Below, in pieces: positions 2,749 to 64,000 of a DNA stretch of 64,000 bases. Position 1 is the first letter of the stretch. The number at the start of each line of letters is the position of its first letter. The stretch is from Acidobacteriota bacterium. GTDB lineage: Bacteria; Acidobacteriota; Thermoanaerobaculia; Gp7-AA8. The stretch lies in contig JAFATB010000014.1 in assembly GCA_019244185.1 (NCBI GenBank), positions 544,001-608,000 of the forward strand. Direction: 5' to 3'. The position numbers were made by a program, and so were the translations under genes. The notes beneath the pieces were generated by a model, which did not search any database, was not told the DNA's origin, and worked only from the letters and a program-made list of their open reading frames with translations.

Positions 2749-3753
2749 ATGAAGAAACTCGGTGTCGCGGCGGCCATGATGCTCTGCGCGTTCGGCGCAT
2801 CCGCGAGTAACTTCCGCGGTGCGGACCAGGTGTATTTGCCGGTCGCCGGTCACGTGGGTGGTTCGAGCGGTACGTTCATCTCGGACGTGTATCTGTCGAA
2901 CCTCAGCCAGACCGAAGACGTCGACGTGTCGGTGATCTATCAGCCGATCGGCGAAGGTGGCGGCTCGGGAACGGAGTTCAAGAACGTCATCACGCTCACG
3001 GCCGGTGAGCGTCGCGAGATCACGGACTTTTTCCCGACGGTTCTCGGCCAGAACGGCTACGGACAGCTGATCTTCAACGGCTGCCTCAAGGGCGCGAACT
3101 GCGGCCCCGAGACGCAGGACGACAACGGCAACAGCCCGAACTATCGCGCCATCAGCGCGGAGAGCCGCATTTATCAGATCCCGAACGGCGGCTCGGTCAA
3201 CGACGGCACCACGGGCCAGCTCTTCTCCGGCATTCCCTGGTACAACTTCGTGAGCTCGCTCCAGAGCGCGCAGGGTCTCGACAAGATCTTCATCACCGGC
3301 ATCCGCCAGACCGGTCTCGCCGGAGCCGCTGGCACGTTCCGCACGAACATCGGCCTCGTGAACGCGTCGCAGTACAACACGACCGAGATGGTCGTCACGC
3401 TCTATCAGGGTTCGACCAGCGCGACCAGCAAGAAGGGCGAGTATCACCTCGACCTCGGCCCGCTCGGCAGCGTGCAGAAGGGCTTCGGCGAGATGTTCGG
3501 CAACGACATCACCGGCACGAACTTCTTCGTCACCGTCGAGCAGCGCAACAACCGCCCGAGCCCCGATTCGCCGAGCGGCTGCACGCAGGGCTGCCCGGCC
3601 TTCCTCGCGTACGGCTCGATCCTCGACAACAAGTCGGGTGACGCGACGACGCTCGAAGCGCAGTACATGCAGGCGCTCTCGCCGGAAGCGATCACCGTCA
3701 TCTACCCGAACGGCTCGGGCAAGACGCTGATGCACCGCAGCGTGCACCACTAA
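2749..3753 (+). CDS. Secreted protein made of one uncharacterised ~230-300 aa beta module, ending in HRSVHH
   Basis: RBS AAGGGGAG; signal peptide MKKLGVAAAMMLCAFGASA; motifs YLPVAGH..SDV..N, FRTNIGLVN and AYGSILDN..GD are shared with the C-terminus of 41462-47755. Confidence 0.85.
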   Translation: MKKLGVAAAMMLCAFGASASNFRGADQVYLPVAGHVGGSSGTFISDVYLSNLSQTEDVDVSVIYQPIGEGGGSGTEFKNVITLTAGERREITDFFPTVLGQNGYGQLIFNGCLKGANCGPETQDDNGNSPNYRAISAESRIYQIPNGGSVNDGTTGQLFSGIPWYNFVSSLQSAQGLDKIFITGIRQTGLAGAAGTFRTNIGLVNASQYNTTEMVVTLYQGSTSATSKKGEYHLDLGPLGSVQKGFGEMFGNDITGTNFFVTVEQRNNRPSPDSPSGCTQGCPAFLAYGSILDNKSGDATTLEAQYMQALSPEAITVIYPNGSGKTLMHRSVHH

Positions 3754-34575: not shown

Positions 34576-36543
34576 ATGCGTGCCCCCGTGCTCCTCGTTC
34601 TCCTCGCCCTGTTCTCGTTCGTCTCCGTGCTTCACGCCGCGGAGATTCCCGTCTCGGAGACGGTGCAGTACGTTCCCGATCCCGGCGACGACGTCTCGCG
34701 ATTCGTTCCTCAGGTTGCGGCGGGGGATGGATTTCTCGTCGTCTGGGAAGACCGGGTGTTCGCCGGCTATCCGGGCGACGTGCACATTCGCGCGTATGAC
34801 GATGATGGCGCGCCGCGCACACCCGCGGCGACGGTCATCGACAGCGGCCATTCGGCACACGTCGTATGGACCGGCAGCGACTATCTCGTCGTATACGCGA
34901 AGTGGCTCCCGCCCTTCGGCAGTCCGTTTCCGCTGCCGCTCTTCGTGGCGGTGCGCGTGCGCGCGGATGGCTCCGTCGTCGAAGGCTCGCGCGTGGTGGT
35001 TCGCGAAGGTCGCGCAAACGGCGACATCGTGAGTCTGGTGTGGACGGGCGAGAACGCGATGCTGCTCACGAGCGAGCTCGATGGCGCCGGACTCTACTCG
35101 CTCGATGCGTCGGGACATCCGATCGGCGACGCCAGCGCGTCCGTGCGCACGCATCCGCCGGTGGCGATCGCCGCGGCGCCCGGCGCACCGCTCTACTACC
35201 TCGCGCCCGAACGCGGCGACGTCGCGGCGGTGCGGCCGGGCGAGATCGCGGTGCTCGACGACACGGTGCTCGGCACGATCGCGGCGCTTTACGACCTGCA
35301 GGGAGCAGTCGTCGACGCATTCCTGCTCGACGCGGTGCACGGTATGCGCTCGCTCGTGTGGGACGGCGCGGCGTGGGAGGGCGTCTACGCGACGAGCGAT
35401 TCCATCTGCACGGTGCGCTTCACGCGCGCGTCGGACGTCGCGACGCAATGCACCGCCGGCGGTGTGCATCCGCAAACGCCGTCGATCGCCGCGGGACGGA
35501 CGCGCACGTTTCGCGCGTGGACGGAAGGCGACACGCAGTACTCGATCGGCGGTGCACGCGTGATGACCGACAGCGGCATCGCGTCCGTCTCCGTCGCGAA
35601 GAAACGGTTGCCGGCGGCGACTGTCGATGCGAGCGGTCTGCTCGTGGCGTGGATCGAAGCGGAACTCGTCCACATCGGCGGCCTCGCGAACGACGGCAAC
35701 CGCCGCGCGGAGGTCGTGCTCGACGGCGACGCCTCGCTCGTCGCACCGGCGATCGCCGCGGCAGGAACGCAGTCGCTCGTCGTGTGGAGCGGTGACGGCG
35801 AGATTCATGCGGTACGCCTCGACGCGTCCGGACATCCGCTGCCGCCATACCTCGACCTCGGCAGCGGCACGAGTCCCGCCATCGCGACGGATGGCGAGCG
35901 CTGGCTCGTCGCGTGGCAGCGCGACGGCGAGATCGCGACGACGATCGTGTCGGCGAACGGCGATCCGAACGGCGTGTTCGCATTCGCCAGCGACGCGCAG
36001 CCATCGACGCCGTCGGTTACGTTCGCCGACGGGCGCTATCTCATCGTGTGGCGCGAGAACGGCGTCGAAACGACGACCATCGCGGTGGCCGCGCTCGATC
36101 GCAACGGCGCGTCGATCTCCGGAACGGTGCGGCATACCGAGGAAGGACTCACGAGTGGACATCCGCCGGCGATTGCATGCAGCGCGAACGGCTGTCTCGT
36201 CACGTGGTTCGAGCTGACGACGTCGACGCTGCTCGGCGCGGCGCTGTCGCTGGACGGCACGACGCTCGGCGAGCCGCACGCGCTCCTGCCCGGCGACGCA
36301 TTCGCACGCACGATCATCGTCGCGCAGAGCGACGGCACGTTCCGCGTGTACGAGCGCAATCGATACGCGATCGTCGGGCGTGACGCGTCAGTACTCGGCT
36401 CCGCGACGTGGATTGCTGACGATCCGAGTCTCGTGCTCGGCGCGGTGCTTCCGTTCCGCGCGAACAGCGTCGCCGTGTACGAGCGCGCCGGCCCCATTTA
36501 CGTCCGCGACTTCGCGGCACGGACGCGTGCGGTTCGTCATTGA
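34576..36543 (+). CDS. Secreted beta-propeller-like repeat protein ending in RTRAVRH
   Basis: Signal peptide ending VLHA; repeats such as VVWTGSDYLVVY, PAIATDGERWLVAW and PSVTFADGRYLIVW. Confidence 0.8.
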   Translation: MRAPVLLVLLALFSFVSVLHAAEIPVSETVQYVPDPGDDVSRFVPQVAAGDGFLVVWEDRVFAGYPGDVHIRAYDDDGAPRTPAATVIDSGHSAHVVWTGSDYLVVYAKWLPPFGSPFPLPLFVAVRVRADGSVVEGSRVVVREGRANGDIVSLVWTGENAMLLTSELDGAGLYSLDASGHPIGDASASVRTHPPVAIAAAPGAPLYYLAPERGDVAAVRPGEIAVLDDTVLGTIAALYDLQGAVVDAFLLDAVHGMRSLVWDGAAWEGVYATSDSICTVRFTRASDVATQCTAGGVHPQTPSIAAGRTRTFRAWTEGDTQYSIGGARVMTDSGIASVSVAKKRLPAATVDASGLLVAWIEAELVHIGGLANDGNRRAEVVLDGDASLVAPAIAAAGTQSLVVWSGDGEIHAVRLDASGHPLPPYLDLGSGTSPAIATDGERWLVAWQRDGEIATTIVSANGDPNGVFAFASDAQPSTPSVTFADGRYLIVWRENGVETTTIAVAALDRNGASISGTVRHTEEGLTSGHPPAIACSANGCLVTWFELTTSTLLGAALSLDGTTLGEPHALLPGDAFARTIIVAQSDGTFRVYERNRYAIVGRDASVLGSATWIADDPSLVLGAVLPFRANSVAVYERAGPIYVRDFAARTRAVRH

Positions 36544-37374: not shown

Positions 37375-37436
37375 AATGAAGAAAGGGGCGCGATTGCGTT
37401 CTCAATTCTGCGTTCTGCGTTCTGCGTTCTTCATTC
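37346..37436. repeat. 32-bp inverted repeat built of AGAACGC heptamers
   Basis: 37346-37377 pairs with 37405-37436 (one G-U pair) and ends at the next ATG. Confidence 0.85.
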
Positions 37437-47861: not shown

Positions 47862-49127
47862 ATGTCCCGCTCCGCGGCCGTTGCCACTCTCGCGTTTCTC
47901 CTTGCAGTTCCGGCACTTGCGGCAACGCGGATGACCTACGACATCCACGGCACGCCGACGCCCATCGAGTGGTCGCCGACGGCCTTTCCGCTCCCGTACA
48001 CGATCGATCAGCGTGTGGTGCAGGCCGACGCCGACGCGCCGGCGATCATCGACCGCGCGTTCGCGGCGTGGGCCGCGGTTCCCGACGCGCAGCTCTCGTT
48101 CCAGTCGCGCGGGACGACCAGCGGCTCGCTCACGCGCACCGCGGGCGGCGTGACCATCTCGCTCGCCGACGATCTCTTCCGCGATCAAGGCGCGCTCGCG
48201 TTGACGACGTACACCTTCGGCGACGACGGACGCTACGTCGACGCCGCGATCCAGATCGATCCGTCGCTCTTCCACGGCAACTGGAACGCGCAAATGGCGA
48301 TCGAGCACGAAGTCGGTCACGTCCTCGGACTCGATCACTCCGGCGTGCTCTCCGCGATCATGTATCCGTACGTCGCGACGGGAGCCGGTGCGCCGGTGCT
48401 CGACAGCGACGACCGCATCGCCATCGTGACGACGTATCCGAAGAGCGATCAGGTGCGCGACGGCGCGACGCTCGAAGGCCGCGTGGTCGGTGACGGCGGC
48501 GGCATCTTCGGCGCGCAGGTCGTCGCCCTCAACACGCACGGCGAGCCGGTCGCGACGGTGCTCACGGACGCCTCGGGCGATTTCACGATCGCCGGCATTC
48601 CGGAAGGACGTTACCGCCTCTATGCGGAACCGCTCGACGGGCCGATGCTGCCCGACTCGCTCCAGGGCTCGTGGCGGCAGGCGAAGGCGAACGCGTTCCC
48701 GACGAAGTTCTTCGACGGCGGTGCGATGGACGTCCAGAACGGACGCGTTTACGGCAATCTCATGCTCGGCGCCGCCGGTGTCTCACAGCTCAACCCGCGC
48801 TGGGTCGGCTGCACGAAGCCGGACGCGAACGCGATCAGCCTCTCCAGCGCGCCGGTCAGCGTGAAGCCGGGGGATACGTTCCGGCTCGCGGTCGGCGGCG
48901 ACGGCTTCACCAGCGGCATGACGCAGTTCGAAGTGACGAACCCCGCGTTCCGCCGCACCTCGGATTTCTCGTGGCAGTCGAACTACATGACCGCGACGTT
49001 CACGGTCGATCGCGACGCGGAGCCGGGCTCGGCGGTCATCCTCGTGAGCAGCGGCAACGAGACGGCGACGCTCACGGGCGCGCTGCGGATCGAGGGTCTG
49101 ACGAAAGCGCGTTCCGTAAGGCATTGA
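47862..49127 (+). CDS. Secreted matrixin-like (metzincin) metalloprotease with a carboxypeptidase-regulatory-like domain, ending in KARSVRH
   Basis: HEVGHVLGLDH plus Met-turn SAIMYP; TDASGDFTIAGIPEGRY; signal peptide. Confidence 0.88.
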   Translation: MSRSAAVATLAFLLAVPALAATRMTYDIHGTPTPIEWSPTAFPLPYTIDQRVVQADADAPAIIDRAFAAWAAVPDAQLSFQSRGTTSGSLTRTAGGVTISLADDLFRDQGALALTTYTFGDDGRYVDAAIQIDPSLFHGNWNAQMAIEHEVGHVLGLDHSGVLSAIMYPYVATGAGAPVLDSDDRIAIVTTYPKSDQVRDGATLEGRVVGDGGGIFGAQVVALNTHGEPVATVLTDASGDFTIAGIPEGRYRLYAEPLDGPMLPDSLQGSWRQAKANAFPTKFFDGGAMDVQNGRVYGNLMLGAAGVSQLNPRWVGCTKPDANAISLSSAPVSVKPGDTFRLAVGGDGFTSGMTQFEVTNPAFRRTSDFSWQSNYMTATFTVDRDAEPGSAVILVSSGNETATLTGALRIEGLTKARSVRH

Positions 49128-50138: not shown

Positions 50139-52835
50139 TCAGCGCAGCAGGTCGTCGAGCGGAATCTCGGCCGTGTGCGGCCGCGGCAGCGCGCGCGCCA
50201 GATAGGGGAGGATCGCCGCGGGCGGAAGCGGCCGGCTGAAGAGATATCCCTGCAGCAGATCGCACGCGTAGTGCCGCAGGAACGTGTACTGCTCTTCCGT
50301 CTCCACGCCTTCGGCGACGACCTTCAGCTGCAGCGTATGCGCGAGATTGATCACGTACGACACGATCGCGGCCGCGGTGTCGTCGAACGTCACCTCGCGC
50401 AGGAACTCCTTGTCGATCTTCACCGTGTCGATCGGGAAGTGCTTGAGATAGATGAGCGACGACTGGCCGGTGCCGAAATCGTCAACCGCGATCGACACGC
50501 CCATCGCGCGCAGCTCGCGCAGCACCGTCAGCGTCGACTCGAAGTTCTGCATCGCCGCGCTCTCGGTGATCTCGAGCTCGAGCAGATGCGGTGAAATGCC
50601 GGACTCCTCGATCGCCGAGCGCACCGTCGTCACGAGATCGCGCTGCTGTAACTGCACCGCCGAGATGTTGACGGCCATCCGCAGCGACGTCAGTCCTTCG
50701 TCGTGCCATTGCCTTAATTGCAGACAGGCGGTGCGCAGCACCCACGCGCCGATGGCGACGATCATCCCGGTCTCTTCGGCGAGCTCGATGAACTCTGACG
50801 GCGGCACGAGGCCGCGGTTCGGATCGCGCCACCGCAGCAGCGCCTCGACCGACGCGATGCGCCGGCCGGCGCGGTCGTAGATCGGCTGATATTCGAGCTC
50901 GAGCTGCTGCCGTTCGATCGCGTGATGGAGATGCTGTTCGAGCGCGAGCCGCCGCACGTAGCGCTCGTTCATGCTGGCCGTGAACAGCTGCGCCTGATTG
51001 CGGCCGAGCTCTTTCGCGCGATACATCGCCGCGTCAGCGCATTTGAGCAGCGTCTCGGCGTCGTCGCCGTCGTTCGGAAAGCAGCTGATGCCGATGCTCG
51101 CCGTGACGATGAGTTCGTGTCCTTCGACCGAGAACGGCTGTGCGAGCGAGTCGAGGATTTTCCGCGCCACGCCCGCCATCGCCTCGGTATTCACGACTTC
51201 CGGCAGCAGGATGCTGAACTCGTCGCCGCCGATGCGCGAGATCGTGTCCGACGCGCGCAGCGCGCCCTGCAGCCGCCGCGCGACCTCGGCCAGCAGCGCG
51301 TCGCCGAGCGAATGCCCGAGGCCGTCGTTGATCAGCTTGAAGTGATCGACGTCGAGATACATCACCGCCACGCCGACGCGGTTGCGTCGCGCGTGCGCGA
51401 CGGCGTTCACGAGCCGGTCGCGAAACAGCAGCCGGTTCGGCAGCGCGGTCAGCGAGTCGTAGTACGCGCGGTATTCGAGCTGCTTCTCGGTTTCCTTGCG
51501 CTGCGAAACGTCGCGGTAGTTGAGCACGACCGCGCCGACGCTCGTCTCGTGCAGCAGGTTCTGCGCGAAGCCTTCGAGCCAGACCCAGTTGCCGTCGCGG
51601 TGGCGGAAGCGCAGCTCGCCGTGGCCTTCGCCGGTTTCCGACGCCACGATCTGCGCGAAGATCGCGCGCGTGCGCTCGGCGTCGCGCGGATGCACGAAGT
51701 CGAACAGCGAGCGCCCGAGGAGCTCGTCATCGCGGTAGCCGAGAAGGTGTTGCGTCGACGAGCCCACGAAGCAGAAGCAGAGCTCCGCGTCGACCAGCGC
51801 CACGCCGCTCCAGCTCTTCTCGACGATCGTGCGGAAGCGCTGCTCGCGCATCTCCAGGCGTCGCTCCGCTTCCTTGCGCGCCGAGATGTCGTGGATGAAC
51901 GCCGTCAGCGTGAAGTCCGCGTCGCTGCCCGCCGGCGCGATCGTGACTTCCGCCGGGAACTCCTCGCCCGACGCGCGCCGTGCGCGGATCTCGAGCCGCC
52001 GCCGCAGCAGCCGGCTCGGCCGTCCCGCGCGATGCCGCTCGAACGCGACGCGCAGCAGATGCATCGTGCCCTCGGGAAAGAGCGACGGTTGCAGCGGCTG
52101 GCCGATCACGTCGCGCGCGGCGAGGCCGAACGTCGTCTCCGCCTGCCGATTCCACTCCGTCACGAGCAGCGAGCGGTCGACCGTGAGCACGGCGTCGACC
52201 GTCGTGGCGATGACCTGCCGCAGCCGCGCCTCGGAACTGCGCAGCGCGTGCTCGGTGCGGCCGCGCGTGATCGCTTCGCCGAGGATGTTCGCGGTCGAGC
52301 GGAGGAACGCCAGCTCGTATTCGGCGAATGTGCGTTCGTTGTCGGAGTAGGCGAGGAGCACGCCGAACGGACCGTACTGCGTGCGGATGACCACGCCCGC
52401 GCCGCTGCGGATGCCGTGGAAGTGCCGGAGATGCGGCGCTTCGAAGCGCGTCTCGTCTTCCAGTCGCGCGAACGAGACCGGGCCATCGGCGAGCAGCGTG
52501 AGCATTCCGATCGACTCGTCTTCCGCGCCGTCGCGGTCGCAGTGGAGGAACGTCTCGTTCGCGCCGAGCGCCGCGCGCACGCGCATGCCGCCGCCGGGTG
52601 CGAGCTCGAGCGCGCGACAGTGGCTGACCTGCAGCGTGAGCTCGACGAGCGCGCACGCCTGGCCGAGGAGCATCAGCGGATCGACGCCGGTGAGGGCGCC
52701 CTGGCCGAGCTCGGCGATGGCGGTTTCCTGCCGGTCGCGCGCCGCGAGCTCCGCGCGCAACGCCTCCAGCTCCGCGTCGCGCGCGTTGCTCCGGCCGTTC
52801 GGGAGCAGGTGGAGCGGCGTCGGCTGCTCGGGCAT
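50139..52835 (-). CDS. GAF-PAS-PAS-GGDEF-EAL c-di-GMP cyclase/phosphodiesterase
   Basis: DSLTALPNR, intact GGDEF, EALLRW, DDFGTG and VAEGVE motifs; two PAS domains and an N-terminal GAF. Confidence 0.95.
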   Translation of the reverse strand: MPEQPTPLHLLPNGRSNARDAELEALRAELAARDRQETAIAELGQGALTGVDPLMLLGQACALVELTLQVSHCRALELAPGGGMRVRAALGANETFLHCDRDGAEDESIGMLTLLADGPVSFARLEDETRFEAPHLRHFHGIRSGAGVVIRTQYGPFGVLLAYSDNERTFAEYELAFLRSTANILGEAITRGRTEHALRSSEARLRQVIATTVDAVLTVDRSLLVTEWNRQAETTFGLAARDVIGQPLQPSLFPEGTMHLLRVAFERHRAGRPSRLLRRRLEIRARRASGEEFPAEVTIAPAGSDADFTLTAFIHDISARKEAERRLEMREQRFRTIVEKSWSGVALVDAELCFCFVGSSTQHLLGYRDDELLGRSLFDFVHPRDAERTRAIFAQIVASETGEGHGELRFRHRDGNWVWLEGFAQNLLHETSVGAVVLNYRDVSQRKETEKQLEYRAYYDSLTALPNRLLFRDRLVNAVAHARRNRVGVAVMYLDVDHFKLINDGLGHSLGDALLAEVARRLQGALRASDTISRIGGDEFSILLPEVVNTEAMAGVARKILDSLAQPFSVEGHELIVTASIGISCFPNDGDDAETLLKCADAAMYRAKELGRNQAQLFTASMNERYVRRLALEQHLHHAIERQQLELEYQPIYDRAGRRIASVEALLRWRDPNRGLVPPSEFIELAEETGMIVAIGAWVLRTACLQLRQWHDEGLTSLRMAVNISAVQLQQRDLVTTVRSAIEESGISPHLLELEITESAAMQNFESTLTVLRELRAMGVSIAVDDFGTGQSSLIYLKHFPIDTVKIDKEFLREVTFDDTAAAIVSYVINLAHTLQLKVVAEGVETEEQYTFLRHYACDLLQGYLFSRPLPPAAILPYLARALPRPHTAEIPLDDLLR

Positions 52836-52959
52836 GTGCGGTTGGGCGAGAGTGTACGCGAGTCGGAAGCGGGGGCCGGATCGGAAGTCGGGAAGGAGAC
52901 AACGGCGGAGGCCGTTGAAGTGCAAAATAAGTTTTTTATCCGGTGTTTTCGGAAAAGAC

Positions 52960-53051: not shown

Positions 53052-56000
53052 ATGATGGCTCTGCGTCGTCTACGTCTCGCTTTGATCCTGAGTGCGATCG
53101 TTTGGGTACCTCTCGCACATGCCGCCACCTCGGACTATCGAGTCCTGATCGACGCGGACAACAACGCAGCCACCGGCTGCTTCGTCGGGGCCATCCCCGG
53201 CATCGATCAGGTGTTGACGACGCGCGTGACGACAACGGATACGGATGGTTCCGTGACGTTGACGCAGCGGCAGGTCTGCTCGACCGGCGTGCTCGGCGCG
53301 CCGATCACGATCAGCACGACCCCGTGGCCGGCCGGCTTTAACGCGAGCAGCGGCAGTCTCCTCATCGAGACCCGCATCCCGTACTCGGCCTTCAGCGGCG
53401 GCGTCGCGCCCGAGGTCATGCATCTCTACTTTGACGGTACGCTCGGCGTCGCGAATCAGATTGTCACGACCAAGCCGAACGGCGATCCGATCCTCTATCC
53501 GACGGCGCCCGCGGGACGGCGTCACTCGGTGCACGTCGGCGACCCGCGCATGATCACGCTCGACGGGCTCGCCACGGACTGGGGCATGATCTCGCCGCTC
53601 GTCGAAGGGCTCGCCTCGGGCGGCACGCAGGCGCTGCGCCTCATCAAGATCTACGCGTTCTCGAATCCGAACGACGGATTCATCTACTTCCGCTTCGACG
53701 CGAACATCTCCACGAACAGCCCCTTCGCGGCCGACGACACGTACTCGCGCGCGCACGGCGCCGGCCTCACCGTTCCGGCGCCGGGCGTCCTCGCGAATGA
53801 CGGCGACCCGAACGGCGCGCCGCTCACCGCGAGCCCGGTCGGTTCGCCTGCCCGCGGCACCGTCACGCTCAACCCCGACGGCAGCTTCACGTACGCGCCG
53901 GACGATCCGACCTCGAACACGGCCGACAGCTTCGACTACAAGGCCTCGAACGGCTCGAAGGACTCGAACGTCGCGCACGTCACCATCAAGGTGTCGACGT
54001 CGACCAACACCGCGCCGCATGCGAACGCCGACTCGTACAGCACCACGGAAGACGTGCCGCTCGTCGTGCCGCCTCCGGGCGTGCTCGCGAACGACCACGA
54101 CGATGAATCCGATCCGCTGACCGTGACCCTCGGCGCGAACGCGACGCACGGCGACGTCGTGCTGCAGGCGAACGGCGGCTTCACATACACGCCGGACGCG
54201 AACTACTTCGGCGCCGACAGCTTCACCTACACCGTCAGCGACGGCCACGCCACCGCGACGGCGACGGTCACGATCGCCGTGACCAGCGTCAACGATCCGC
54301 CGAAGGTGACCGACGCGGCGTTCTCGATTCCGGAGAACAGCCCGAACGGCACCGCCGTCGGCACCGTGCACGTCACCGACAACGACGTCGCCGACAGCCA
54401 CACCTTCTCCATCACGGCCGGCAACACCGGCAACGCGTTCGCGATCAACGCCACCAGCGGCGCGATCACCGTGGCGAACACGACCGCGCTCAACTTCGAG
54501 ACCACGCCGTCGTTCACGCTGACCGTGCACGTCGTCGACAACGGCGTGCCGAACAAGTCGGACAACGGAACGGTCACCATCACGCTCACCGACGTGAACG
54601 ACAAGCCGGTGGCGCAGCCGGATTCCTACACGATCGGCGAAGACGGCACGCTCACCGTGCCGGCGCCCGGCGTGCTCGCGAATGATTCCGATCAGGATGC
54701 GGGCACGACGCTCACCGCGGTCCAGAACGTCGCGCCGCTGCACGCGGCGTCGTTCGCGCTCAACGCGGACGGCTCCTTTACGTACGTCCCGGCCGCGAAC
54801 TACAACGGCACGGACTCGTTCAGCTACCACGCGCACGACGGCTCGCTCGACTCCGACGTCGTGCTCGTCACGATCACGATCACGCCGGTCAACGACACCC
54901 CGAGCTTCACGGGATCCGGCGACGTCTCGTCGCCCGAGGATGTCGCGTACAGCGCGACGTGGGCGACGGCGATCAGCAAAGGACCGAGCGACGAGAACGC
55001 GCAGACGCTGACGTTCAACGTCAGCAACGATGCGAACGCGCTCTTCAGCGTGCAGCCGGCGATCGCCGCCGACGGAACACTGACGTTCACCCCGGCCCCG
55101 AATGCGGTCGGCCTGGCGCACGTCACCGTCACGCTTTCCGATAACGGCGACGGCGCGAACACGTCCGCGCCGGTCAACTTCACGATCAACATCACGGCGG
55201 TCAACGACGCTCCGGTGCTCACGGCGGGCGGCGCATCTCCGGCGTTCACCGAAGACGGCGCGCCGGTCGCGATCGATCCGTCGATCAGCGTGAGCGACGT
55301 CGACGACGCGAACCTCGAGTCGGCGACGATCACCATCACGAACCTTCTCGACAGCGGCTCCGAGACGCTGGCGGCGAACACCGCCGGCACGTCGATCACC
55401 GCGGTCTACAGCGCGCCGACGCTGACGCTGTCCGGCAGCGACACGCTGGCGAACTACCAGCAGGTGCTTCGCAGCATCACGTACGCGAACAGCGCGCAGG
55501 ATCCGAACACGACCGCGCGCAGCATCAGCATCGTCGTCAACGACGGCGACGTGAACAGCAACACGGTCACGAAGACGATGAGCGTCACCGCGGTCAACGA
55601 CGCGCCCGTCGTGACGACGAGCGGCGGCACGACCGCGTTCGTCGAAGACTCCGCGGCCGTCGTCGTCGACAACGCGCTCACGATCACCGACGTCGACTCG
55701 ACGACGCTGACCGGCGCGACCGTCACGATCTCGAACCTCCTCGACAGCGGCGCCGAGACGCTGGCCGCGCCGACGCTCGTCGGCGGCGTGACCGCCGTGT
55801 ACGTCGCGCCGACGCTCACCTTCACCGGCACGGCCACGCTCGCGCAGTACGAGACGATGCTCCGCGCGGTGACGTACAACGACGCCGCCAACGCGCCGAA
55901 CACGACCGCGCGCATCATCTCCTTCCAGGTCAACGACGGTGCCGCGGCGAACAACCTCTCCAACGTCGCCACCAAGAACGTCTCCGTGACGCCGACCAAC

Positions 56001-59000
56001 GACGCGCCGGTGCTCGTCGCCGGCCACACGGTCGCGTACACCGAGAACGGCAGCCCCGTCACGCTCGAGCCGGCGCTCACGATCACCGATCCCGACTCCG
56101 CGACGATGCAGTCGGCGGCGGTGCTCGTCTCCGGAAATGCAGGTGCCGGCGACGTCCTCGCGTGCCCCGCGTGCGGCACGACCGTCCCGGGCATCACCGC
56201 GATCTTCAGCAGCGGGACGCTGCAGCTCTCCGGCGTCGACACGCTCGCGAATTACCAGACCGCGCTGCGCAGCGTCACGTACGCCAACGCCAGCGACGCC
56301 CCGTCCACCGCGCAGCGCGGAATCGACTGGTTCGTGACGGACGCCGGCGGCCTCCAGAGCCAGGACGACGCGCAGAACGACACGCTCGTCAACGTCACCG
56401 CCGTCAACGACGCGCCGGTCGTCACGACCAGCGGCGGCACGACCGCGTTCGTCGAAGACGCCGGCCCGGTCGCCGTCGACAGCGGCCTCACCGTCACCGA
56501 CGTCGACTCGACGACGCTCACCGGTGCGACGGTCACCATCACGAACGTTCTCGACGGCGCGGCGGAAGCCCTCGCGGCACCGTCACTCCTCGGCGGCGTC
56601 ACGGCGAGCTACAACGCCGGCGTGCTGACGCTGAGCGGCACCACGACCCTCGCCAACTACCAGGCCATGCTCCGCGCCGTCACCTACGACAACGCGTCGG
56701 ACACGCCGGCCACCACCAGCCGCACGATCGCGTTCCAGGTCAACGACGGCGGCGCGGTGAACAACCTCTCCACCGTCGCCAACCAGACCGTCTCCGTCAC
56801 GCCGACGAATGACGCGCCGGTCGTCACCACCACCGGGACGACCAGCGCCTTCACCGAAGACGGCTCGCCGGTCGCCGTCGACGGCGGCGTCACGATCAGC
56901 GACGTCGACAGCGCGAACCTCACCGGCGCGACCGTCACGATCACGAACCTCCTCGACAGCGGTGCGGAAACGCTCGCCGCGCCGACGCTGCTCGGCGGCG
57001 TCACCGCCAGCTACGTTGCGCCGACGCTCACGCTCACCGGCACCGCGACGCTTGCGCAGTATCAGACCATGCTGCGGGCGGTCACGTACACGAACTCCTC
57101 GAACGACCCGACCACGACCACGCGCGTCATCTCGTTCCAGGTGAACGACGGCGGCGCGGTGAACAACCTCTCGAACACCGCCACGAAGAACGTTTCCATC
57201 ACCGCGTCGAACGACGCGTCCGTGGTGACGACCAGCGGCGGCACGAGCGCGTTCGTCGAAGACTCGCCCGCCGTCGTCGTCGACGGTTCGGTGAGCGTCA
57301 CCGACATCGACTCGACCACGCTCACGGGCGCGACGGTCACGATCACGAACCTCCTCGACGGCAGCGCCGAATCGCTGGCCGCGCCGACGCTCCTCGGCGG
57401 TGTGACCGCGAGCTACAACGCCGGCACGCTGACCTTCAGCGGCACGACCTCGCTCGCCAACTACCAGACCATGCTCCGCGCGGTGACGTACGACAACTCG
57501 TCGAACGCGCCGAGCACCACCGCCCGCGTCATCGCCTTCCAGGTGAATGACGGCGGCGCGGTGAACAACCTCTCGAACGTCGCCAACAAGAGCGTCTCCG
57601 TCACGGCGACGAACGACGCGCCGGTGGTCACGCCGACCGGCACGACGACGCCGTTCACCGAGGATGGCGGGGCGGTGGCGGTCGACAGCGGCGTCAGCGT
57701 GAGCGACGTCGATAGCGCGAACCTCACCAGCGCTACGGTCACGATCACGAACCTCCTCGACAGCGGCGCGGAAACGCTCGCCGCGCCGACGCTGCTCGGC
57801 GGCGTCACCGCGAGCTACGTCGCGCCGACGCTGACGCTCACCGGCACCGCGACCGTCGCGCAGTACCAGACGATGCTGCGGGCGGTGACGTACAACAACT
57901 CCTCGAACAACCCCACCACGACCACGCGCGTGCTCAACTTCCAGGTGAACGACGGCGGCGCCGTCAACAACCTGTCGAACGTCGGCGCGAAGAACGTCTC
58001 GATCACCGCCGTCAACGACGCGCCGGTGGTCACGACCACCGGCGGCTCGAGCGCGTTCGTCGAAGACTCGCCCGCGGTCGCGGTCGACAACGGACTGACA
58101 ATCACCGACATCGACTCGACGAACCTCACCGGCGCGACGGTCACGATCACGAACCTCCTCGACGGCGTGGCGGAATCGCTCACGGCGACCTCGCTCGTCG
58201 GCGGCGTCACCGCGAACTACGTCGGCGGCGTGCTCACCTTCACCGGCACGACGTCGCTCGCGAACTACCAGTCGATGTTGCGCGCGGTGACGTACAACAA
58301 CACGTCCAACACGCCCAACGTCACCGCTCGCGTCATCGCCTTCCAGGTCAATGACGGCGGAGCGGCGAACAACCTCTCGAACGTCGCGACGAAGACCGTC
58401 AGCGTCACCGCGACGAACGACGCGCCGGTCGTCACCACGACTGCCGCGATCACCAGCTTCACCGAAGGCGCCGGCGCGGTCGCGATCGATTCGCTGGTCG
58501 CCGTCACCGACGTCGACTCGCCGACCCTCGGCAGCGCCGTTATCACGATCACGAACCTGCAGGACGCGGGACTGGAGACGCTGGCCGCGCCGACGCTGCT
58601 CGGCGGTGTGACCGCGAGCTACGTCGCGCCCACGCTCACGCTCACCGGCACGGCCACGGTCGCGCAGTATCAGACGATGCTGCAGGCCATCACGTACAAC
58701 AACTCCTCGAACGCGCCGAACACCACCAACCGCTCGGTCTCGTACCAGGTGAATGACGGCAGCGCCAACAGCAACGTCGCGACGAAGACGGTCAGCGTGA
58801 CGTCCGTCAACAGCGTCCCGGTCGTCACGACGTCGGCGGGCACGTCGGCGTTCGTCGAAGACGCGGCTCCGGTCGTGGTCGACGCCGGCGTCACCGTCAC
58901 CGATCCCGACACCGCGACGCTCGCCTCGGCGACCGTCACGATCGCGAACCTTCTCGACAGCGGCGCCGAAACGCTGGCCGCGCCGACGCTGCTCGGCGGC

Positions 59001-62000
59001 GTCACGGCGAGCTACGTCGCTCCGACGCTGACCCTCACCGGCACGGCCACGCTCGCGCAGTACCAGACCATGCTCCGCGCGGTCACGTACAACAACGCGT
59101 CGAACACGCCGAACGTCACCGTGCGCACGATCAACTTCCAGGTCGATGACGGCCAGAGCACGAACCACCAGAGCGCAGTCGCCTCGAAGAGCGTCAGCGT
59201 GACGCCGTCGAACGACGCGCCGGTCGTGACGACCAGCGGCGGCACGGCCGCGTTCACCGAGGATGGGGGAGCGGTGGCGGTGGACAACGGCGTGACCGTG
59301 ACGGACGTGGATTCCGGCACGCTCGCCAGCGCCACCATCACCATCACGAACCTGCTCGACAGCGGCGCGGAAACGCTCGCCGCGCCGACGCTCCTCGGCG
59401 GCGCGACTGCCAGCTACGTCGCTCCGACGCTCACCATCACCGGCGTCACGACGCTTTCCAACTACCAGACGATGCTGCGCGCGGTGACGTACAACAACAC
59501 CTCGCAGAATCCGAACGGCACCACGCGCACGATCTCGTTCACGGTCAACGACGGCGCCGCCAACAGCAACACGGCGACGCGCGGCGTGACCGTGGCGTCG
59601 GTCAACGACGCGCCGGTCGTCACGACCAGCGGCGGCACCAGCGCGTTCGTCGAAGACTCGCCGGCCATCGCCGTCGACAACGCGCTCACGGTGACCGACG
59701 TCGACTCGGCGAACCTCACCGGCGCGACGGTCACGATCACGAACCTGCTCGACGCCGGCGCGGAAACGCTGGCCGCGCCGACGCTGCTCGCCGGCGCCAC
59801 CGCGAGCTACGTCGCGCCGACGCTGACCATCAGCGGCACGGCCACGCTCGCCCAGTACCAGACCATGCTCCGCGCGGTGACGTACAACAACTCGTCGAAC
59901 ACGCCGTCGACCACGAACCGCTCCATCTCGTTCCAGGTCAACGACGGCGCGGGCGTGAACAACCTCTCCAACGTCGCCAGCAAGACCGTCTCGATCACGC
60001 CGACGAACGATCCGCCGGTGCTCACGGTCAGCGGCTCGCTCAGCTACACCGAGAACCAGGCGCCGGCTGCGCTCGGCGTCACGGCGTCCGTGACCGACGT
60101 CGACTCGACGAACATCACCTCCGCGACCGTGACGATCTCCGCCGGCTTCCAGAGCGGCGCCGACGTCCTCGGCTTCACGACGCAGAACGGCATCACCGGC
60201 AACTACGTCGCGCCGACGCTGACCCTCAGCGGCTCCGCGACGCTGGCGCAGTACGCCGCGGCGCTGCAGAGCGTCACCTACCAGAACACCTCGGACGATC
60301 CGACGACGGCCGCGCGCACGGTCACGTTCCAGGTCAACGACGGCAGCGCGAACAGCAACACGCAGACGTCGACGATCAGCGTCACCGCGACCAACGACCC
60401 GCCGGTCAACAACGTCCCGACGAATGCGCAGTCGGTGAACGAAGACACGCCGCTCACCTTCACCGGCGCGGGCAACATCGTCTCGATCACCGATCCGGAC
60501 GCGCAGTCGGGGAACATCTCCGTCGAGATCAAGACCACCAACGGCACGACCACGATCGTCACGCCGACGGGCCTCACGTTCGCCCCGCCGGCGGGCAACG
60601 GCACCGCCGACTACACGATCAGCGGCACGCTCGCCAACGTGAACGCGTCGCTGGCCACGCTGCGCTTCAACCCGACGGCCGACTTCCCGTTCGCCGCCGC
60701 CTCGGGCACCGCGTCGATTCAGCTCATCACGACCGATAACGGCAATACGCCGGCGCCGGCGAAGGGCGACGACGACACCTTCAACATCACCGTCAACCAG
60801 GTCAACGATCCGCCGACGGCGGGCAGCGACACGTTCGACACCATCGGCAACACCGAGCTGCGCGTCGACATCGGCGTGGCCGGCACGACGCCGAACGTGG
60901 TCAAGACCAGCGTCACCACCCTCAAAGGCGTTCTCGGGAACGACTCCGACAACCCGAACGAGAACAATCCGTTCACCGTCACGTCGATCGTCGGCTGCGC
61001 CGACATGAGCAACTGCACCCTCGCGTCGGGCTCGATCGTCTCGATGAACAGCAACGGCACGTTCACCTTCAAGCCGTCGCCGACGATCCCCACCGGTGCA
61101 CCGGCCTCGGACACGTTCCAGTACGTCATCACCGACCAGCCGGCCGGCGGCACGCCGCAGACGGCGACCGGCACCGTCACGATCCACATCTTTGACAAGG
61201 TGTGGTACGTGAAGGAAGGCGGCACGGGCAACGGCCGCTCCGATTCACCGCTCGGTGCCTTCACGACTCTCAACGGCGCAGGCGGCGCCGGCGACGTCGA
61301 CGCCGCGGGCGACTACATCTTCGTGCAGCGCAACTCGACCAACCCGGTCAACGGTCCGATCGAGCTCGAGGCGAATCAGCACCTGCTCGGTGAGGGCGTC
61401 GGTCTTTCGATCCCGCGCGCGCTCAACGGCAACGCCTCGCCGGTCAATCTCGTCGCGGCCGGCACGAAGCCGCCGATCGCTTCGGCGAGCGACGCCGTCC
61501 AGATCAAGGCGGCCATGCCGGTCGAAGTGCGCGGTCTCGACATCAGCGCGAGCGGCGGCAACGACGTCGATCTCACGGCCACCGGAGCGTTCAGCGGTTC
61601 GCCGACGCTGACGATCTCCGACAACGTCTTCACGACGGCGTCTGCGGAAGACGTCGACGTCAACGCCGGCGCGACCGGCACGCTGGGTCTCACGATCCAG
61701 AACAACAGCTGGGGCACAGGCGCTCACGGCAACAACGGCATCGACATCCGCACGACGGCCGCGAATACGCTGAACCTCCTCGTGGCGAACAACACCGGCA
61801 TCGGAGTGACCGGCACCGGCATCCTGATCGACGGCAGCGGTGCGACCGTCACCATCACCGACTTCTCCAGCAACACGATCACCGGCGCCACCGGCGGGAC
61901 CGGCATCTCGATCAACAACGCCAAGTTCGACCAGACCCCGACCGGCGGCTTCCAGGCCGTCTCCGGCGGCACGACGACCATCGGCGTGACCGGCAACGGC

Positions 62001-64000
62001 GTCGGCGGCGCGGGTCTCATCATGACGAACGTCACCGGTGACCTCAGCTTCAACGATCTCGACATCGTGGCCGACAACGGCACGGCGCTGCGCGCCACCA
62101 GCGGCGCCACGTTCAATTCCGGCGCCGGCGCCGGCTTCCAGATCGCGGTCACGTCCGGCGCGGGCACGATGACGTCCACGAACGGAGCCGCGGTCGACCT
62201 CACGACCGTCACGGCGTCGCTGCCGCTCGGCGTCATCAGCAGCACCACCAGCACGGGCACGGGCGTCAACCTCGACACCGTCCTCGGCACGTTCTCCGCG
62301 GCCTCCGGCAGCGCGATCAGCAACGCCACCGGCACCGACTTCAACATCAACGCCGGCAACGCCAACGTGACGTACAACGGCACGATCACCGATACCAGCG
62401 GCCGCGTCGTCGCGATTGCGAGCTCCACCGGCGGCACCAAGCAGTTCACCGGCGCGATCACGAACAACGGCGGCACCGGCATCTCGCTCACGAACAATAC
62501 CGGTACGACGATGACCTTCAACGGCGGCGTCGTCCTGTCGACCGGCTCGAGCGACGCCTTCACGGCGACGGGCGGCGGTACGGTGAGCGTCTGCGACGAG
62601 GCGGCCTGCAACGCGGCCGTGGGCGGCGCGCTGGTCAACACGTTGACCACCACGACGGGCATCGCGCTCAACGTCGCCAACACCACCATCGGCGCCGGCG
62701 GCCTCGAGTTCCGCAGCATCAACGCGGGCACGGCCGCCAGCGGTCCGGCCAGCGGCATCATCCTGAACACCACCGGCGCCACCGCGGGGCTCACCGTGCG
62801 CGCGAACGGCGGTACCTGCAGCAGCGCGGGTACGTGCACGGGCGGTGCGATTCAGCACACCACCAGTCACGGCATCTCGCTCAACAGCACGCTCTCGCCG
62901 ACGTTCGACCGCATGTTCATCGACACCACCGGCGGCAGCGGCGTCAACGGCCAGACGGTGACGAACTTCACCTTCACCAACGGCGTGATCAGCAACTCCG
63001 GCAACGCCCTCGGCGAGTCGAACATCGCGTTCAACGGCAGCGGCGCGCTGTCGGGCAACAACATCTCCGGCACGCTCACCGTCACCAACAGCACGCTGAC
63101 GAATGCGTTCGACGACGGCATCGACGTCACCAACGACGCGGGCACGATCTCCAATGCGGTGATCACCGGCAACACGCTGACCAGCACCACCAGCTCGGCC
63201 ACGTCGCAGAACGACGCGATTCACCTCATCGGCATCGGCAACGGCACCACCGCCTCCTCGCTCACCAAGGCCACCATCGACAGCAACACCATCCGCAACT
63301 TCCCCGGCGGCGGTGGCATCCAGGTGAGCTATGGCAACGCCAGCGTGACCGGACCGGGCGGCTCTGCCGGTACGGCGGGTAACGCGACGAACATCATCAA
63401 CATCACCAACAACACGGTGCAGGGTCAGAGCGCGGCCGCCCGCATGAACACCAGCGCGATCATGATCCAGATCAACGGCGGCAACTCCGGCAACCGCTCG
63501 CAGGGCAACTTCAACGTGTCGAACAACGGCACGGTTGCGAACCCGCTCGGCAACACGGACGGCACGGTCATCCTCGTCGGCAACAACGGCTACGCGACGA
63601 TGACCGGCACGATCAGCGGCAACCGCATCGTCGCCAACAACACCGTCGCGTCGAACGGCATCGGCGGCGGCAACGGCGTGAGCGTCGGTACGTCGGACAC
63701 CCCGCTGCTCACGCTGACGGTGAGCAGCAACAACATCAGCGCCACGGACGGCAACGGCATTCTGCTCGTCAGCCGCGGCGTGACCGGCCAGGCCAACCTG
63801 ACCATCACCAGCAACACCGTCGCCGCGCCGCTCAGCGGCAATCGCGAAGGCATCCGCGTGGATGCGGGCAACGCCGCTTCGGTCGACGACGCGGTCTGCC
63901 TCGACATCCGCAGCAACACCAGCGCCGGCAGCGGCGTGGCCACGGGTATCGGTCTGCGCAAGCAGGGCACGAGCAGCACCGTCAACGACTTCGGCATCGA
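53052..64000 (+). CDS. Giant repetitive secreted adhesin (>3600 aa, 3' truncated by the window)
   Basis: RBS AAGGA; signal peptide MMALRRLRLALILSAIVWVPLAHA; Ig-like/tandem-95 (GVLANDxD..DGSFTY) and cadherin-like domains, 13 tandem repeats, then a beta-helix region. Frame is consistent at 55200, 60000 and 63960; it is missing from the ORF track, presumably because it has no stop in the window. Confidence 0.92.
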   Translation, partial: MMALRRLRLALILSAIVWVPLAHAATSDYRVLIDADNNAATGCFVGAIPGIDQVLTTRVTTTDTDGSVTLTQRQVCSTGVLGAPITISTTPWPAGFNASSGSLLIETRIPYSAFSGGVAPEVMHLYFDGTLGVANQIVTTKPNGDPILYPTAPAGRRHSVHVGDPRMITLDGLATDWGMISPLVEGLASGGTQALRLIKIYAFSNPNDGFIYFRFDANISTNSPFAADDTYSRAHGAGLTVPAPGVLANDGDPNGAPLTASPVGSPARGTVTLNPDGSFTYAPDDPTSNTADSFDYKASNGSKDSNVAHVTIKVSTSTNTAPHANADSYSTTEDVPLVVPPPGVLANDHDDESDPLTVTLGANATHGDVVLQANGGFTYTPDANYFGADSFTYTVSDGHATATATVTIAVTSVNDPPKVTDAAFSIPENSPNGTAVGTVHVTDNDVADSHTFSITAGNTGNAFAINATSGAITVANTTALNFETTPSFTLTVHVVDNGVPNKSDNGTVTITLTDVNDKPVAQPDSYTIGEDGTLTVPAPGVLANDSDQDAGTTLTAVQNVAPLHAASFALNADGSFTYVPAANYNGTDSFSYHAHDGSLDSDVVLVTITITPVNDTPSFTGSGDVSSPEDVAYSATWATAISKGPSDENAQTLTFNVSNDANALFSVQPAIAADGTLTFTPAPNAVGLAHVTVTLSDNGDGANTSAPVNFTINITAVNDAPVLTAGGASPAFTEDGAPVAIDPSISVSDVDDANLESATITITNLLDSGSETLAANTAGTSITAVYSAPTLTLSGSDTLANYQQVLRSITYANSAQDPNTTARSISIVVNDGDVNSNTVTKTMSVTAVNDAPVVTTSGGTTAFVEDSAAVVVDNALTITDVDSTTLTGATVTISNLLDSGAETLAAPTLVGGVTAVYVAPTLTFTGTATLAQYETMLRAVTYNDAANAPNTTARIISFQVNDGAAANNLSNVATKNVSVTPTNDAPVLVAGHTVAYTENGSPVTLEPALTITDPDSATMQSAAVLVSGNAGAGDVLACPACGTTVPGITAIFSSGTLQLSGVDTLANYQTALRSVTYANASDAPSTAQRGIDWFVTDAGGLQSQDDAQNDTLVNVTAVNDAPVVTTSGGTTAFVEDAGPVAVDSGLTVTDVDSTTLTGATVTITNVLDGAAEALAAPSLLGGVTASYNAGVLTLSGTTTLANYQAMLRAVTYDNASDTPATTSRTIAFQVNDGGAVNNLSTVANQTVSVTPTNDAPVVTTTGTTSAFTEDGSPVAVDGGVTISDVDSANLTGATVTITNLLDSGAETLAAPTLLGGVTASYVAPTLTLTGTATLAQYQTMLRAVTYTNSSNDPTTTTRVISFQVNDGGAVNNLSNTATKNVSITASNDASVVTTSGGTSAFVEDSPAVVVDGSVSVTDIDSTTLTGATVTITNLLDGSAESLAAPTLLGGVTASYNAGTLTFSGTTSLANYQTMLRAVTYDNSSNAPSTTARVIAFQVNDGGAVNNLSNVANKSVSVTATNDAPVVTPTGTTTPFTEDGGAVAVDSGVSVSDVDSANLTSATVTITNLLDSGAETLAAPTLLGGVTASYVAPTLTLTGTATVAQYQTMLRAVTYNNSSNNPTTTTRVLNFQVNDGGAVNNLSNVGAKNVSITAVNDAPVVTTTGGSSAFVEDSPAVAVDNGLTITDIDSTNLTGATVTITNLLDGVAESLTATSLVGGVTANYVGGVLTFTGTTSLANYQSMLRAVTYNNTSNTPNVTARVIAFQVNDGGAANNLSNVATKTVSVTATNDAPVVTTTAAITSFTEGAGAVAIDSLVAVTDVDSPTLGSAVITITNLQDAGLETLAAPTLLGGVTASYVAPTLTLTGTATVAQYQTMLQAITYNNSSNAPNTTNRSVSYQVNDGSANSNVATKTVSVTSVNSVPVVTTSAGTSAFVEDAAPVVVDAGVTVTDPDTATLASATVTIANLLDSGAETLAAPTLLGGVTASYVAPTLTLTGTATLAQYQTMLRAVTYNNASNTPNVTVRTINFQVDDGQSTNHQSAVASKSVSVTPSNDAPVVTTSGGTAAFTEDGGAVAVDNGVTVTDVDSGTLASATITITNLLDSGAETLAAPTLLGGATASYVAPTLTITGVTTLSNYQTMLRAVTYNNTSQNPNGTTRTISFTVNDGAANSNTATRGVTVASVNDAPVVTTSGGTSAFVEDSPAIAVDNALTVTDVDSANLTGATVTITNLLDAGAETLAAPTLLAGATASYVAPTLTISGTATLAQYQTMLRAVTYNNSSNTPSTTNRSISFQVNDGAGVNNLSNVASKTVSITPTNDPPVLTVSGSLSYTENQAPAALGVTASVTDVDSTNITSATVTISAGFQSGADVLGFTTQNGITGNYVAPTLTLSGSATLAQYAAALQSVTYQNTSDDPTTAARTVTFQVNDGSANSNTQTSTISVTATNDPPVNNVPTNAQSVNEDTPLTFTGAGNIVSITDPDAQSGNISVEIKTTNGTTTIVTPTGLTFAPPAGNGTADYTISGTLANVNASLATLRFNPTADFPFAAASGTASIQLITTDNGNTPAPAKGDDDTFNITVNQVNDPPTAGSDTFDTIGNTELRVDIGVAGTTPNVVKTSVTTLKGVLGNDSDNPNENNPFTVTSIVGCADMSNCTLASGSIVSMNSNGTFTFKPSPTIPTGAPASDTFQYVITDQPAGGTPQTATGTVTIHIFDKVWYVKEGGTGNGRSDSPLGAFTTLNGAGGAGDVDAAGDYIFVQRNSTNPVNGPIELEANQHLLGEGVGLSIPRALNGNASPVNLVAAGTKPPIASASDAVQIKAAMPVEVRGLDISASGGNDVDLTATGAFSGSPTLTISDNVFTTASAEDVDVNAGATGTLGLTIQNNSWGTGAHGNNGIDIRTTAANTLNLLVANNTGIGVTGTGILIDGSGATVTITDFSSNTITGATGGTGISINNAKFDQTPTGGFQAVSGGTTTIGVTGNGVGGAGLIMTNVTGDLSFNDLDIVADNGTALRATSGATFNSGAGAGFQIAVTSGAGTMTSTNGAAVDLTTVTASLPLGVISSTTSTGTGVNLDTVLGTFSAASGSAISNATGTDFNINAGNANVTYNGTITDTSGRVVAIASSTGGTKQFTGAITNNGGTGISLTNNTGTTMTFNGGVVLSTGSSDAFTATGGGTVSVCDEAACNAAVGGALVNTLTTTTGIALNVANTTIGAGGLEFRSINAGTAASGPASGIILNTTGATAGLTVRANGGTCSSAGTCTGGAIQHTTSHGISLNSTLSPTFDRMFIDTTGGSGVNGQTVTNFTFTNGVISNSGNALGESNIAFNGSGALSGNNISGTLTVTNSTLTNAFDDGIDVTNDAGTISNAVITGNTLTSTTSSATSQNDAIHLIGIGNGTTASSLTKATIDSNTIRNFPGGGGIQVSYGNASVTGPGGSAGTAGNATNIINITNNTVQGQSAAARMNTSAIMIQINGGNSGNRSQGNFNVSNNGTVANPLGNTDGTVILVGNNGYATMTGTISGNRIVANNTVASNGIGGGNGVSVGTSDTPLLTLTVSSNNISATDGNGILLVSRGVTGQANLTITSNTVAAPLSGNREGIRVDAGNAASVDDAVCLDIRSNTSAGSGVATGIGLRKQGTSSTVNDFGI
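55203..60392 (+). repeat. 13 tandem ~400-bp (129-136 aa) coding repeats
   Basis: NDAP-type starts at 55203, 55596, 55998, 56406, 56808, 57210, 57612, 58014, 58416, 58809, 59211, 59604 and 60006. Confidence 0.9.

Follow-up and report, generated by a model that had tools for sequence, protein, structure and literature searches.

An arginine-rich loop motif may mark a helix-free site of sorting or processing in the base of a giant acidobacterial adhesin

The window analyzed here is a stretch of 64,000 nucleotides from an Acidobacteriota bacterium of the class Thermoanaerobaculia (assembly GCA_019244185.1, contig JAFATB010000014.1, positions 544,001 to 608,000; G000:C4:544001-608000 in the genome coordinates used below). 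It carries the gene of a giant cadherin-repeat adhesin, and close to the N terminus of this adhesin lies the motif PAGRRHSVH. We report that the motif matches a short tag, roughly P-x-[RK]-[RH]-R-[SAG]-V-[RH]-(H)-stop, which stands at the extreme C terminus of many Sec-exported exoenzymes in this acidobacterial lineage. The core of the motif is conserved among divergent homologues, it lies in a loop of the adhesin base, and relatives from other families of the class carry an IPTL-type signal with transmembrane (TM) segments at the same place, here called the slot. We favor, with moderate confidence, the reading that PAGRRHSVH is a working internal copy of this short TM-less tag and is read by the same envelope factor. 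As we read these sequences, the slot would be an internal site of sorting or processing in a TM-less form, perhaps as part of a sorting system that is still undescribed.

Translation places PAGRRHSVH where the preliminary description of this DNA had put it (Table 1), after the signal peptide and a two-Cys region and before ITLDGLATDWG and the cadherin-like repeats. Its residues P-A-G-R-R-H-S-V fit the tag core [RK]-x-[RKH]-[SAG]-V with the preceding Pro/Gly, and the slot is the single match to [RK].[RKH][SAG]V among all 3690 residues of the full-length adhesin. Like a carrier of the tag, the adhesin has a Sec signal peptide, assigned by eye at residues 1-24. The tag ends 0-2 residues past its Val at the extreme C terminus; here 3529 residues follow the motif. 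The slot sequence, TAPAGRRHSVHVGDPRMITLDGLA (residues 151-174), contains the basic cluster R156-R157-H158 and no hydrophobic run, and the adhesin's own C terminus (...GFVSCNSAP) bears no tag.

The claim that this is the same motif as a C-terminal tag is supported genome-wide. Open reading frames (ORFs) were called by third-position GC content (GC3), which gave a set of 3254 non-overlapping high-GC3 ORFs and a stricter set of 3133. The sequence [basic]x[basic]-[SAG]-V-[RH]-(H)-stop ends 23 of the 3254, usually after Pro/Gly, and VRH-stop was observed nine times in the stricter set against 0.47 expected. The codons of the tag vary from gene to gene, and selection therefore acts on the peptide, not on the DNA. 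Signal peptides were found on 22 of the 23 tagged ORFs; the exception, a family-2 glycosyltransferase, is taken to be a chance match. The carriers are unrelated proteins, among them a PL8 lyase, a GH44 hydrolase, four S8 subtilases, an M10 matrixin and a GDSL lipase, together with glucose/sorbosone dehydrogenase (GSDH), BNR/sortilin, HYR and PKD/Calx proteins.

Beyond this genome, the best 120 of 7304 GH44 homologues (E<=1e-20) include 38 that end in the strict tag and 67 that end in a basic tail. The tagged homologues have two different C-terminal architectures, with the tag after Pro-rich spacers, and the source names of several listed ones say Thermoanaerobaculia. The Val in these tails is followed by R in 36 cases, by G in four, by nothing in two, and by R-P-R and S-R in one each; among the matches listed, the four ending in V-G resemble the internal consensus described below. 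At the DNA level, the pattern R-x-V-R-H-TGA, which catches one tag form only, occurs 510 times in 71 published genomes of the source genome's own family against 138 for a reversed control (7.2 vs 1.9 per genome). The corresponding counts are 117 and 68 in 76 published genomes from other families of the class (handles G001-G100). Genomes G285, G230 and G283 are outliers with many matches. The full-length form of the adhesin itself was found in 40 of 72 own-family genomes, within a sample of 301 class genomes and with the unpublished G175 included in the tally. The underlying tallies of the adhesin, of the DNA pattern and of the C25 peptidases discussed below take in one or more of the unpublished genomes G175, G104, G171 and G004, on which none of the statements made here rests.

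Conservation of the linker was named in the preliminary description as one of two points on which a role of the motif would stand or fall, and the slot turned out to be conserved. Residues 25-235 were compared with 1.84 billion representatives, which yielded 231 matches at E<=1e-3; among the best 150, 71 representatives, each less than 50% identical to the others, span the slot. A relaxed core, [RK]-x-[RH]-[AS]-[VAI], is present in the slot of 68 of these 71, and a strict core, [RK][RKHQ][RH][ASG][VAI], in 43. In the 68 anchored sequences, the first core position is R in 54 and K in 12, the second is R in 51, the third is R in 55 and H in 13, the fourth is A in 41 and S in 14, and the fifth is V in 39, A in 10 and I in nine. 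The flanks of the slot vary across the 71 both in the kind and in the number of residues, and the family consensus reads P-P-G-[RK]-R-[RH]-[AS]-[VAI]-[GA]-x-P-G. PAGRRHSVH scores 16.3 with a position-specific scoring matrix (PSSM) of the tag, on which true tags score 11.9-22.2. For the slot test, the PSSM was built only from the 22 exported tags of this genome and cut to positions -6 to 0 to bar any contribution of the C-terminal R/H. With this matrix the slot was the best site in the whole protein for 61 of the 71 representatives (81,944 residues scanned). In addition, each of the 29 own-family loci read from published genomes retains the core and lacks a hydrophobic segment in the slot. Because it is conserved in homologues, the internal copy is more than a chance match.

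The preliminary description had also suggested looking for a known sorting signal at this place in other lineages, and that comparison was positive. Each of the 11 loci read from other class families has in the slot IPT[LV][SG], a TM segment, RRR and a second TM segment, followed by (V/I)LDG..DW, with which the second part of the module begins; a twelfth locus, from the unpublished genome G104, stands outside the 11 counted. The relatives concerned are those whose alignment covers only the initial part of the module, here called D1-only. Among D1-only representatives, 42 have 90 or more residues downstream; by a strict filter, 31 of these have two TM-like segments, seven have one and four have none. 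An NCBIfam scan of 18 IPTL-like or VPLSPW-type D1-only relatives matched TIGR04174 (IPTL-CTERM) in nine, always at an internal position and above the cut-off in three (P0086, P0100 and P0145). NF033207, 'midcut-by-XrtH protein', matched 12 of the 18, all below the cut-off (best 43.5 vs 45) and limited to profile positions from 5 to 89. Neither model matched the six VPLSPW-type relatives. The first 500 residues of our adhesin gave no match to TIGR04174 (cut-off 20.5 bits) or NF033207 at E<=1, and a search of the whole genome returned no NF033207 match above its cut-off of 45 bits. Exosortase H (XrtH) is encoded in the genome (L009:1462-1986; 104.4 bits on TIGR04177 vs a cut-off of 86), and eight IPTL-CTERM tails score above the cut-off, or about 12 with the weaker ones. 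Both tag types therefore coexist in this organism. A natural swap of this kind is strong comparative evidence that the two elements do a like job. As to whether an exosortase adjoins the IPTL-type adhesins, each of the five genomes examined has one small exosortase, which lies within about 9.5 kb of the adhesin only in G070.

We predicted the structure of the adhesin base with two AlphaFold models, based on alignments of 40 and 47 homologues. The model of residues 1-330 has a mean per-residue confidence (pLDDT) of 91 and a predicted template modeling score (pTM) of 0.81, and that of residues 25-232 has a mean pLDDT of 93 and a pTM of 0.89. The sole dip in pLDDT falls at the motif, to 62 over residues 151-160 in the first model and to 66 over residues 155-164 in the second, and residues 150-174 have no secondary structure. 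The possibility raised earlier that the motif is part of a folded core is thus not what the models indicate, the motif being the only low-confidence, structure-free stretch in both. After the motif there are only two strands (model residues 172-181 and 186-194), and in the models both sides of the loop form one beta-sandwich. By these predictions, the slot is a loop inside one module and not a linker that connects independent domains. The membrane hairpin of the relatives is, judging from sequence, inserted into this same loop.

The chain was also split after H158 and folded as two chains, which gave an ipSAE interface score of 0.78 against 0.00 for the best control, a pass that is expected of one predicted domain split in two. 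The ipSAE mark is reached by 116 of 157 solved complexes and by 2 of 215 mismatched pairs, and is rough here, as an own alignment was used. The split-chain runs shared at least 93% of contacts with a partner pLDDT of at least 68, and they pair model residues 79-87 antiparallel with 185-193. Since the halves of the module are predicted to be clasped (pTM 0.89; ipSAE 0.78), a cut would nick the base and not free an N-terminal fragment, which weakens the earlier suggestion of a small released N-terminal piece. The fold itself appears to share only a common beta-sandwich arrangement with known structures. Foldseek with the base module returned nothing at E<=0.001, and the best hit of a wide VIA search was an unrelated starch-binding protein (7uwu_A; Z 5.0, root-mean-square deviation 5.0, 125 residues aligned), with galectin, C2 and CBM9-like rows at Z 3-4. 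When the 330-residue model served as the query, matches to the cadherin-like repeat predominated. No Pfam family matched the N-terminal part of the module, in which C43 and C76 are conserved and were invariant in the homologue comparison.

From these results we infer a mechanism in which the envelope factor that reads the tags of the exoenzymes would also read the adhesin loop. This factor would either cut or transpeptidate beside the basic cluster, at about R-R-[RH] / [AS]-V, or dock there without cutting. After a cut, the base would be nicked with its halves clasped by beta-strand pairing, the first part of the nicked base could be linked to an anchor, and the foot of the adhesin would in this way be handed to that anchor. 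We favor processing because the counterpart of the slot is 'midcut' by name, and because the invariant small-residue-then-Val pattern resembles the site of an enzyme pocket. A further ground for this preference is that such a cut would leave a tail of only two to four residues, reminiscent of the short groups that transpeptidases release. In its most complete form, the proposal would be an undescribed sorting or transpeptidation system of Thermoanaerobaculia-type acidobacteria in which a helix-free eight-residue arginine tag (RRR-[AS]-V-R), used at C termini and in the loop, replaced the exosortase 'midcut' hairpin in one family of giant adhesins; its enzyme, located in the periplasm or the outer membrane, would cut past the arginines and link the new C terminus to an envelope acceptor, leaving the adhesin anchored through its nicked and clasped base. 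This extended scheme is tentative, and we think it rather unlikely to be correct in all its parts.

The closest known counterpart is the set formed by midcut-by-XrtH proteins (NF033207), IPTL-CTERM (TIGR04174) and exosortase H (TIGR04177), where a sorting-type signal likewise lies inside a secreted protein. In homologues of the base module, the loop in which PAGRRHSVH lies is the site of an internal IPTL signal, so that the slot is the position of an internal signal in relatives, whereas our adhesin has a TM-less motif there. The slot shares with IPTL-CTERM the basic cluster and the presence of XrtH in the genome, but it has neither an IPTL motif nor a membrane helix, and it matches neither hidden Markov model. 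The role of NF033207 members is taken here from the name of the model, and even the IPTL-type relatives score below its cut-off. The tripartite signals (LPXTG/sortase, PEP-CTERM/exosortase, GlyGly-CTERM/rhombosortase and MYXO-CTERM/myxosortase), as far as general knowledge and published abstracts describe them, resemble the arginine tag in that one short, lineage-restricted element with a basic cluster follows a spacer on many unrelated exported proteins. By contrast, the tag described here lacks a membrane helix as well as the signature motif that would precede one, and it consists of about eight residues that end 0-2 past the Val.

Two further systems offer partial parallels. LapA-type giant RTX adhesins are held at the surface by an N-terminal retention module, and the LapG site, a di-alanine, lies just after it. 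The adhesin studied here is likewise a giant repeat protein with an N-proximal module, and a neighboring GGDEF-EAL gene suggests a link to cyclic di-GMP (c-di-GMP). It differs in having a Sec signal peptide and an Arg-rich motif in place of the di-alanine; its GGDEF-EAL neighbor contains PAS and GAF domains and is not LapD-like by Pfam, and no search for a LapG-type gene was made. In SEA and GAIN/GPS domains, which cut themselves, the pieces of the nicked domain are held together by a shared beta-sheet. The split-chain prediction suggests a like clasp in the adhesin base, although there is no likeness in sequence or fold (best fold Z 5.0).

To our knowledge, the prokaryotic sorting tags that are well described all depend on a membrane helix and on a C-terminal position. 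What appears new here is a helix-free signal of about eight residues on about twenty unrelated exoenzymes per genome, together with a conserved internal copy, placed in the loop that holds an internal exosortase signal in relatives. Conservation of the internal copy means that the tag needs no free C terminus, which limits the kinds of reader that can be considered. The pair of adhesin forms, one with the hairpin and the other with the arginine motif, could also bear on how exosortase 'midcut' proteins work. The tag of this lineage is apparently undescribed so far. Among the texts and abstracts covered by our literature searches, none dealt with midcut proteins or with this arginine tag, and searches directed at sorting signals of Thermoanaerobaculia and at exosortase signals located inside adhesins likewise yielded nothing on the tag. 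The only relevant passage found there describes an S-layer protein for which an IPTL-CTERM domain is predicted (PMC8671808).

Several observations weigh against a working copy with a shared reader. XrtH is still present, and the swap was therefore not forced by loss of the IPTL system. The residue after the Val differs, the C-terminal tags having R or H there and the internal sites mostly G or A, and the tag and the loop may therefore lack a common reader. Family genomes with the adhesin contain a mean of 8.9 R-x-V-R-H-TGA matches and those without it 5.0, a comparison that is confounded by kinship and genome size and that uses composition-dependent counts. Since the value without the adhesin still exceeds the control (5.0 vs 1.9), the co-occurrence of tag and adhesin is loose. 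No conserved protease gene lies beside the adhesin among the family genomes examined, and none of the candidate enzymes examined tracks the tag. Within its own proteome, moreover, the internal match is not beyond chance: five internal sites score as high, compared with two to four per shuffle in 10 shuffles. Four of the five lie within the first 73 codons of stop-to-stop frames and are probably upstream of true starts. Among the small number of high-scoring internal sites, RRPGRRRAVRW at about codon 73 of an 850-codon frame (G000:C7:193464-196016, + strand) lies just past a hydrophobic stretch and may be a real N-proximal copy.

These shuffle counts are what a chance resemblance would predict, in which the motif is a functionless basic patch that happens to look like the tag. 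We consider this very improbable, and it is already contradicted by the conservation of the core in 68 of 71 mutually divergent representatives and by the slot being the best PSSM site in 61. The same within-genome statistics would also fit a relic, and the arginine cluster could indeed be what is left of the cytoplasmic loop in an ancestral TM hairpin. On this account, the IPTL-TM-RRR-TM segment lost both helices, and the arginines persisted in a role that has nothing to do with the C-terminal tags; loop solubility, export kinetics and ligand binding by the base module are examples. The position and composition of the motif do match the interhelix loop of the IPTL-type relatives, one of which (L050) has LRRQRRAV at the slot region, and the residue after the Val is unlike that of the C-terminal tags. 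A relic would be expected to drift, yet it is the flanks that drift while the five-residue core stays, and [AS]-V is not general in hairpin loops but a feature of the tags. We therefore regard a relic as distinctly unlikely.

The main rival, corresponding to the 'N-proximal tether' of the preliminary description, is a docking peptide that is never cut: the loop and the tails would be short linear motifs that attach, with no proteolysis, to a receptor in the envelope or to an anionic polymer of the surface and so hold the adhesin base and the exoenzymes at the surface. The loop is exposed and flexible in the models, the membrane hairpin of the relatives in this loop is itself a tether, the tails come after Pro-rich spacers and have a strongly cationic character, and no protease among the candidates examined tracks the tag. 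However, the strict small-residue-then-Val pattern points to a specific active site or pocket and not to charge alone; moreover, a free C terminus is not needed, since the internal copy is conserved. Docking without cutting is, in our judgment, rather unlikely.

The enzymes considered as readers were rejected on their distribution or identity. Of the Arg-specific peptidases of clan CD, C11 gave no match in this 98.9% complete genome. Two genes for C25 Arg-specific peptidases are present, but this family occurs in 145 of 301 class genomes, including tag-poor families, and was not found in the tag-rich genomes G259, G191 and G047; it therefore does not track the tag. The single P-domain match that might have indicated a kexin-like convertase belongs to an M36 metallopeptidase and not to a subtilase. 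An Rce1-like CPBP intramembrane protease is encoded at 818-1624 (+) of the window, near the tagged gene 2701-3753. It has no close ortholog in 17 same-genus genomes, and orthologs at E<=1e-15 were found in 3 of 72 family genomes.

Table 1. Coordinates, within the 64,000-nucleotide window, of the adhesin features, the divergent neighboring gene and the C-terminal tags
Feature	Position	Strand	Basis
Giant cadherin-repeat adhesin gene	53052..63998, past window end	+	ORF, GC3 0.94
Sec-type signal peptide, residues 1-24, MMALRRLRLALILSAIVWVPLAHA	53052..53123	+	by eye, no predictor; helix 2-17 in model
N-terminal part of base beta-sandwich module, residues 25-150	53124..53501	+	pLDDT 91-93
Slot: flexible surface loop with motif, residues 151-174	53502..53573	+	no secondary structure over 150-174
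PAGRRHSVH, adhesin residues 153-161	53508..53534	+	translation
Conserved core RRHSV, R156-V160	53517..53531	+	position counts over 71 representatives
C-terminal part of base module, residues 175-232, including DW of LDGxxxDW	53574..53747	+	two strands predicted to pair with N-terminal part
Divergent PAS-GAF-GGDEF-EAL gene	50139..52925	-	Pfam
Tag MHRSVHH-stop of exported 350-aa protein (gene 2701-3753)	3730..3753	+	
Tag RRRAVR-stop of exported ~800-aa protein (gene 24870-27269)	24870..24890	-	
Tag RTRAVRH-stop of exported 655-aa protein (gene 34576-36543)	36520..36543	+	
Tag KARSVRH-stop of exported matrixin (M10) + CarboxypepD_reg protein (gene 47862-49127)	49104..49127	+	

The adhesin frame starts at the ATG at 53052 and ends at G000:C4:608124, with a third-position GC content of 0.94; long antisense ORFs at this locus are high-GC shadows in a genome of 67% GC. 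Pfam matches to Big_9, Cadherin_4, Cadherin_5 and Cadherin lie at residues 308-498, and NCBIfam adds a match to the tandem-95 repeat model NF012211. Of 12 other family genomes examined, eight (G075, G159, G131, G017, G291, G012, G039 and G055) also have a divergent PAS-GAF-GGDEF-EAL gene upstream of the adhesin, and this conserved neighbor suggests control of the adhesin by c-di-GMP. Among the family genomes examined, the tagged matrixin is found upstream of the adhesin only in the source genome and in G075, where its ortholog ends in RVRAVRH. A DUF5666 protein is encoded directly upstream of the adhesin in G159, G131, G017, G291 and G012, and further upstream in G199. These five directly upstream proteins have a Lys/Gly-rich tail and are encoded on the same strand as the adhesin (L080:8393-9706, L089:445-1671, L082:8794-9744, L090:8477-9718 and L085:382-1383).

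Beyond the window, the adhesin gene is followed by that of a second giant protein (G000:C4:608105-615502; L078:106-7503), of about 2370 residues from the likely signal peptide in an open frame of 2465 codons. It has the last ~150 residues of the adhesin in common, ending G-F-x-x-C-x-x-x-P, and lacks both the D1 module and a tag-like motif. Two tandem genes for phage tail collar domain proteins (L078:8063-9154; G000:C4:616062-617153) lie downstream of both giant genes. At 41462-47755 (-) the window encodes a 2097-aa DUF11-repeat protein with a different C-terminal ending, ...VDMQTQAPTYIPAQ, whose gene is missing from the syntenic region of G075.

The window, 1.2% of the genome, contains four of the 23 tagged ORFs in addition to the internal copy, and two further tagged subtilase genes are adjacent on C17. 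The 350-aa tagged protein (2701-3753) was considered as a homologue of the adhesin N terminus, and no homology was found (BLASTP E 2.4). The ~800-aa tagged protein (24870-27269) has a sub-threshold fn3 match (21.4 bits vs a cut-off of 25). The 655-aa tagged protein was not assigned to a family; its gene lies between those of a molybdopterin oxidoreductase (32074-34536) and of 4Fe-4S and NrfD proteins (36565-38276), a position amid oxidoreductase genes that is unexpected for a secreted protein. The commonest C-terminal tetrapeptide of the genome is LRYE, which ends seven ORFs.

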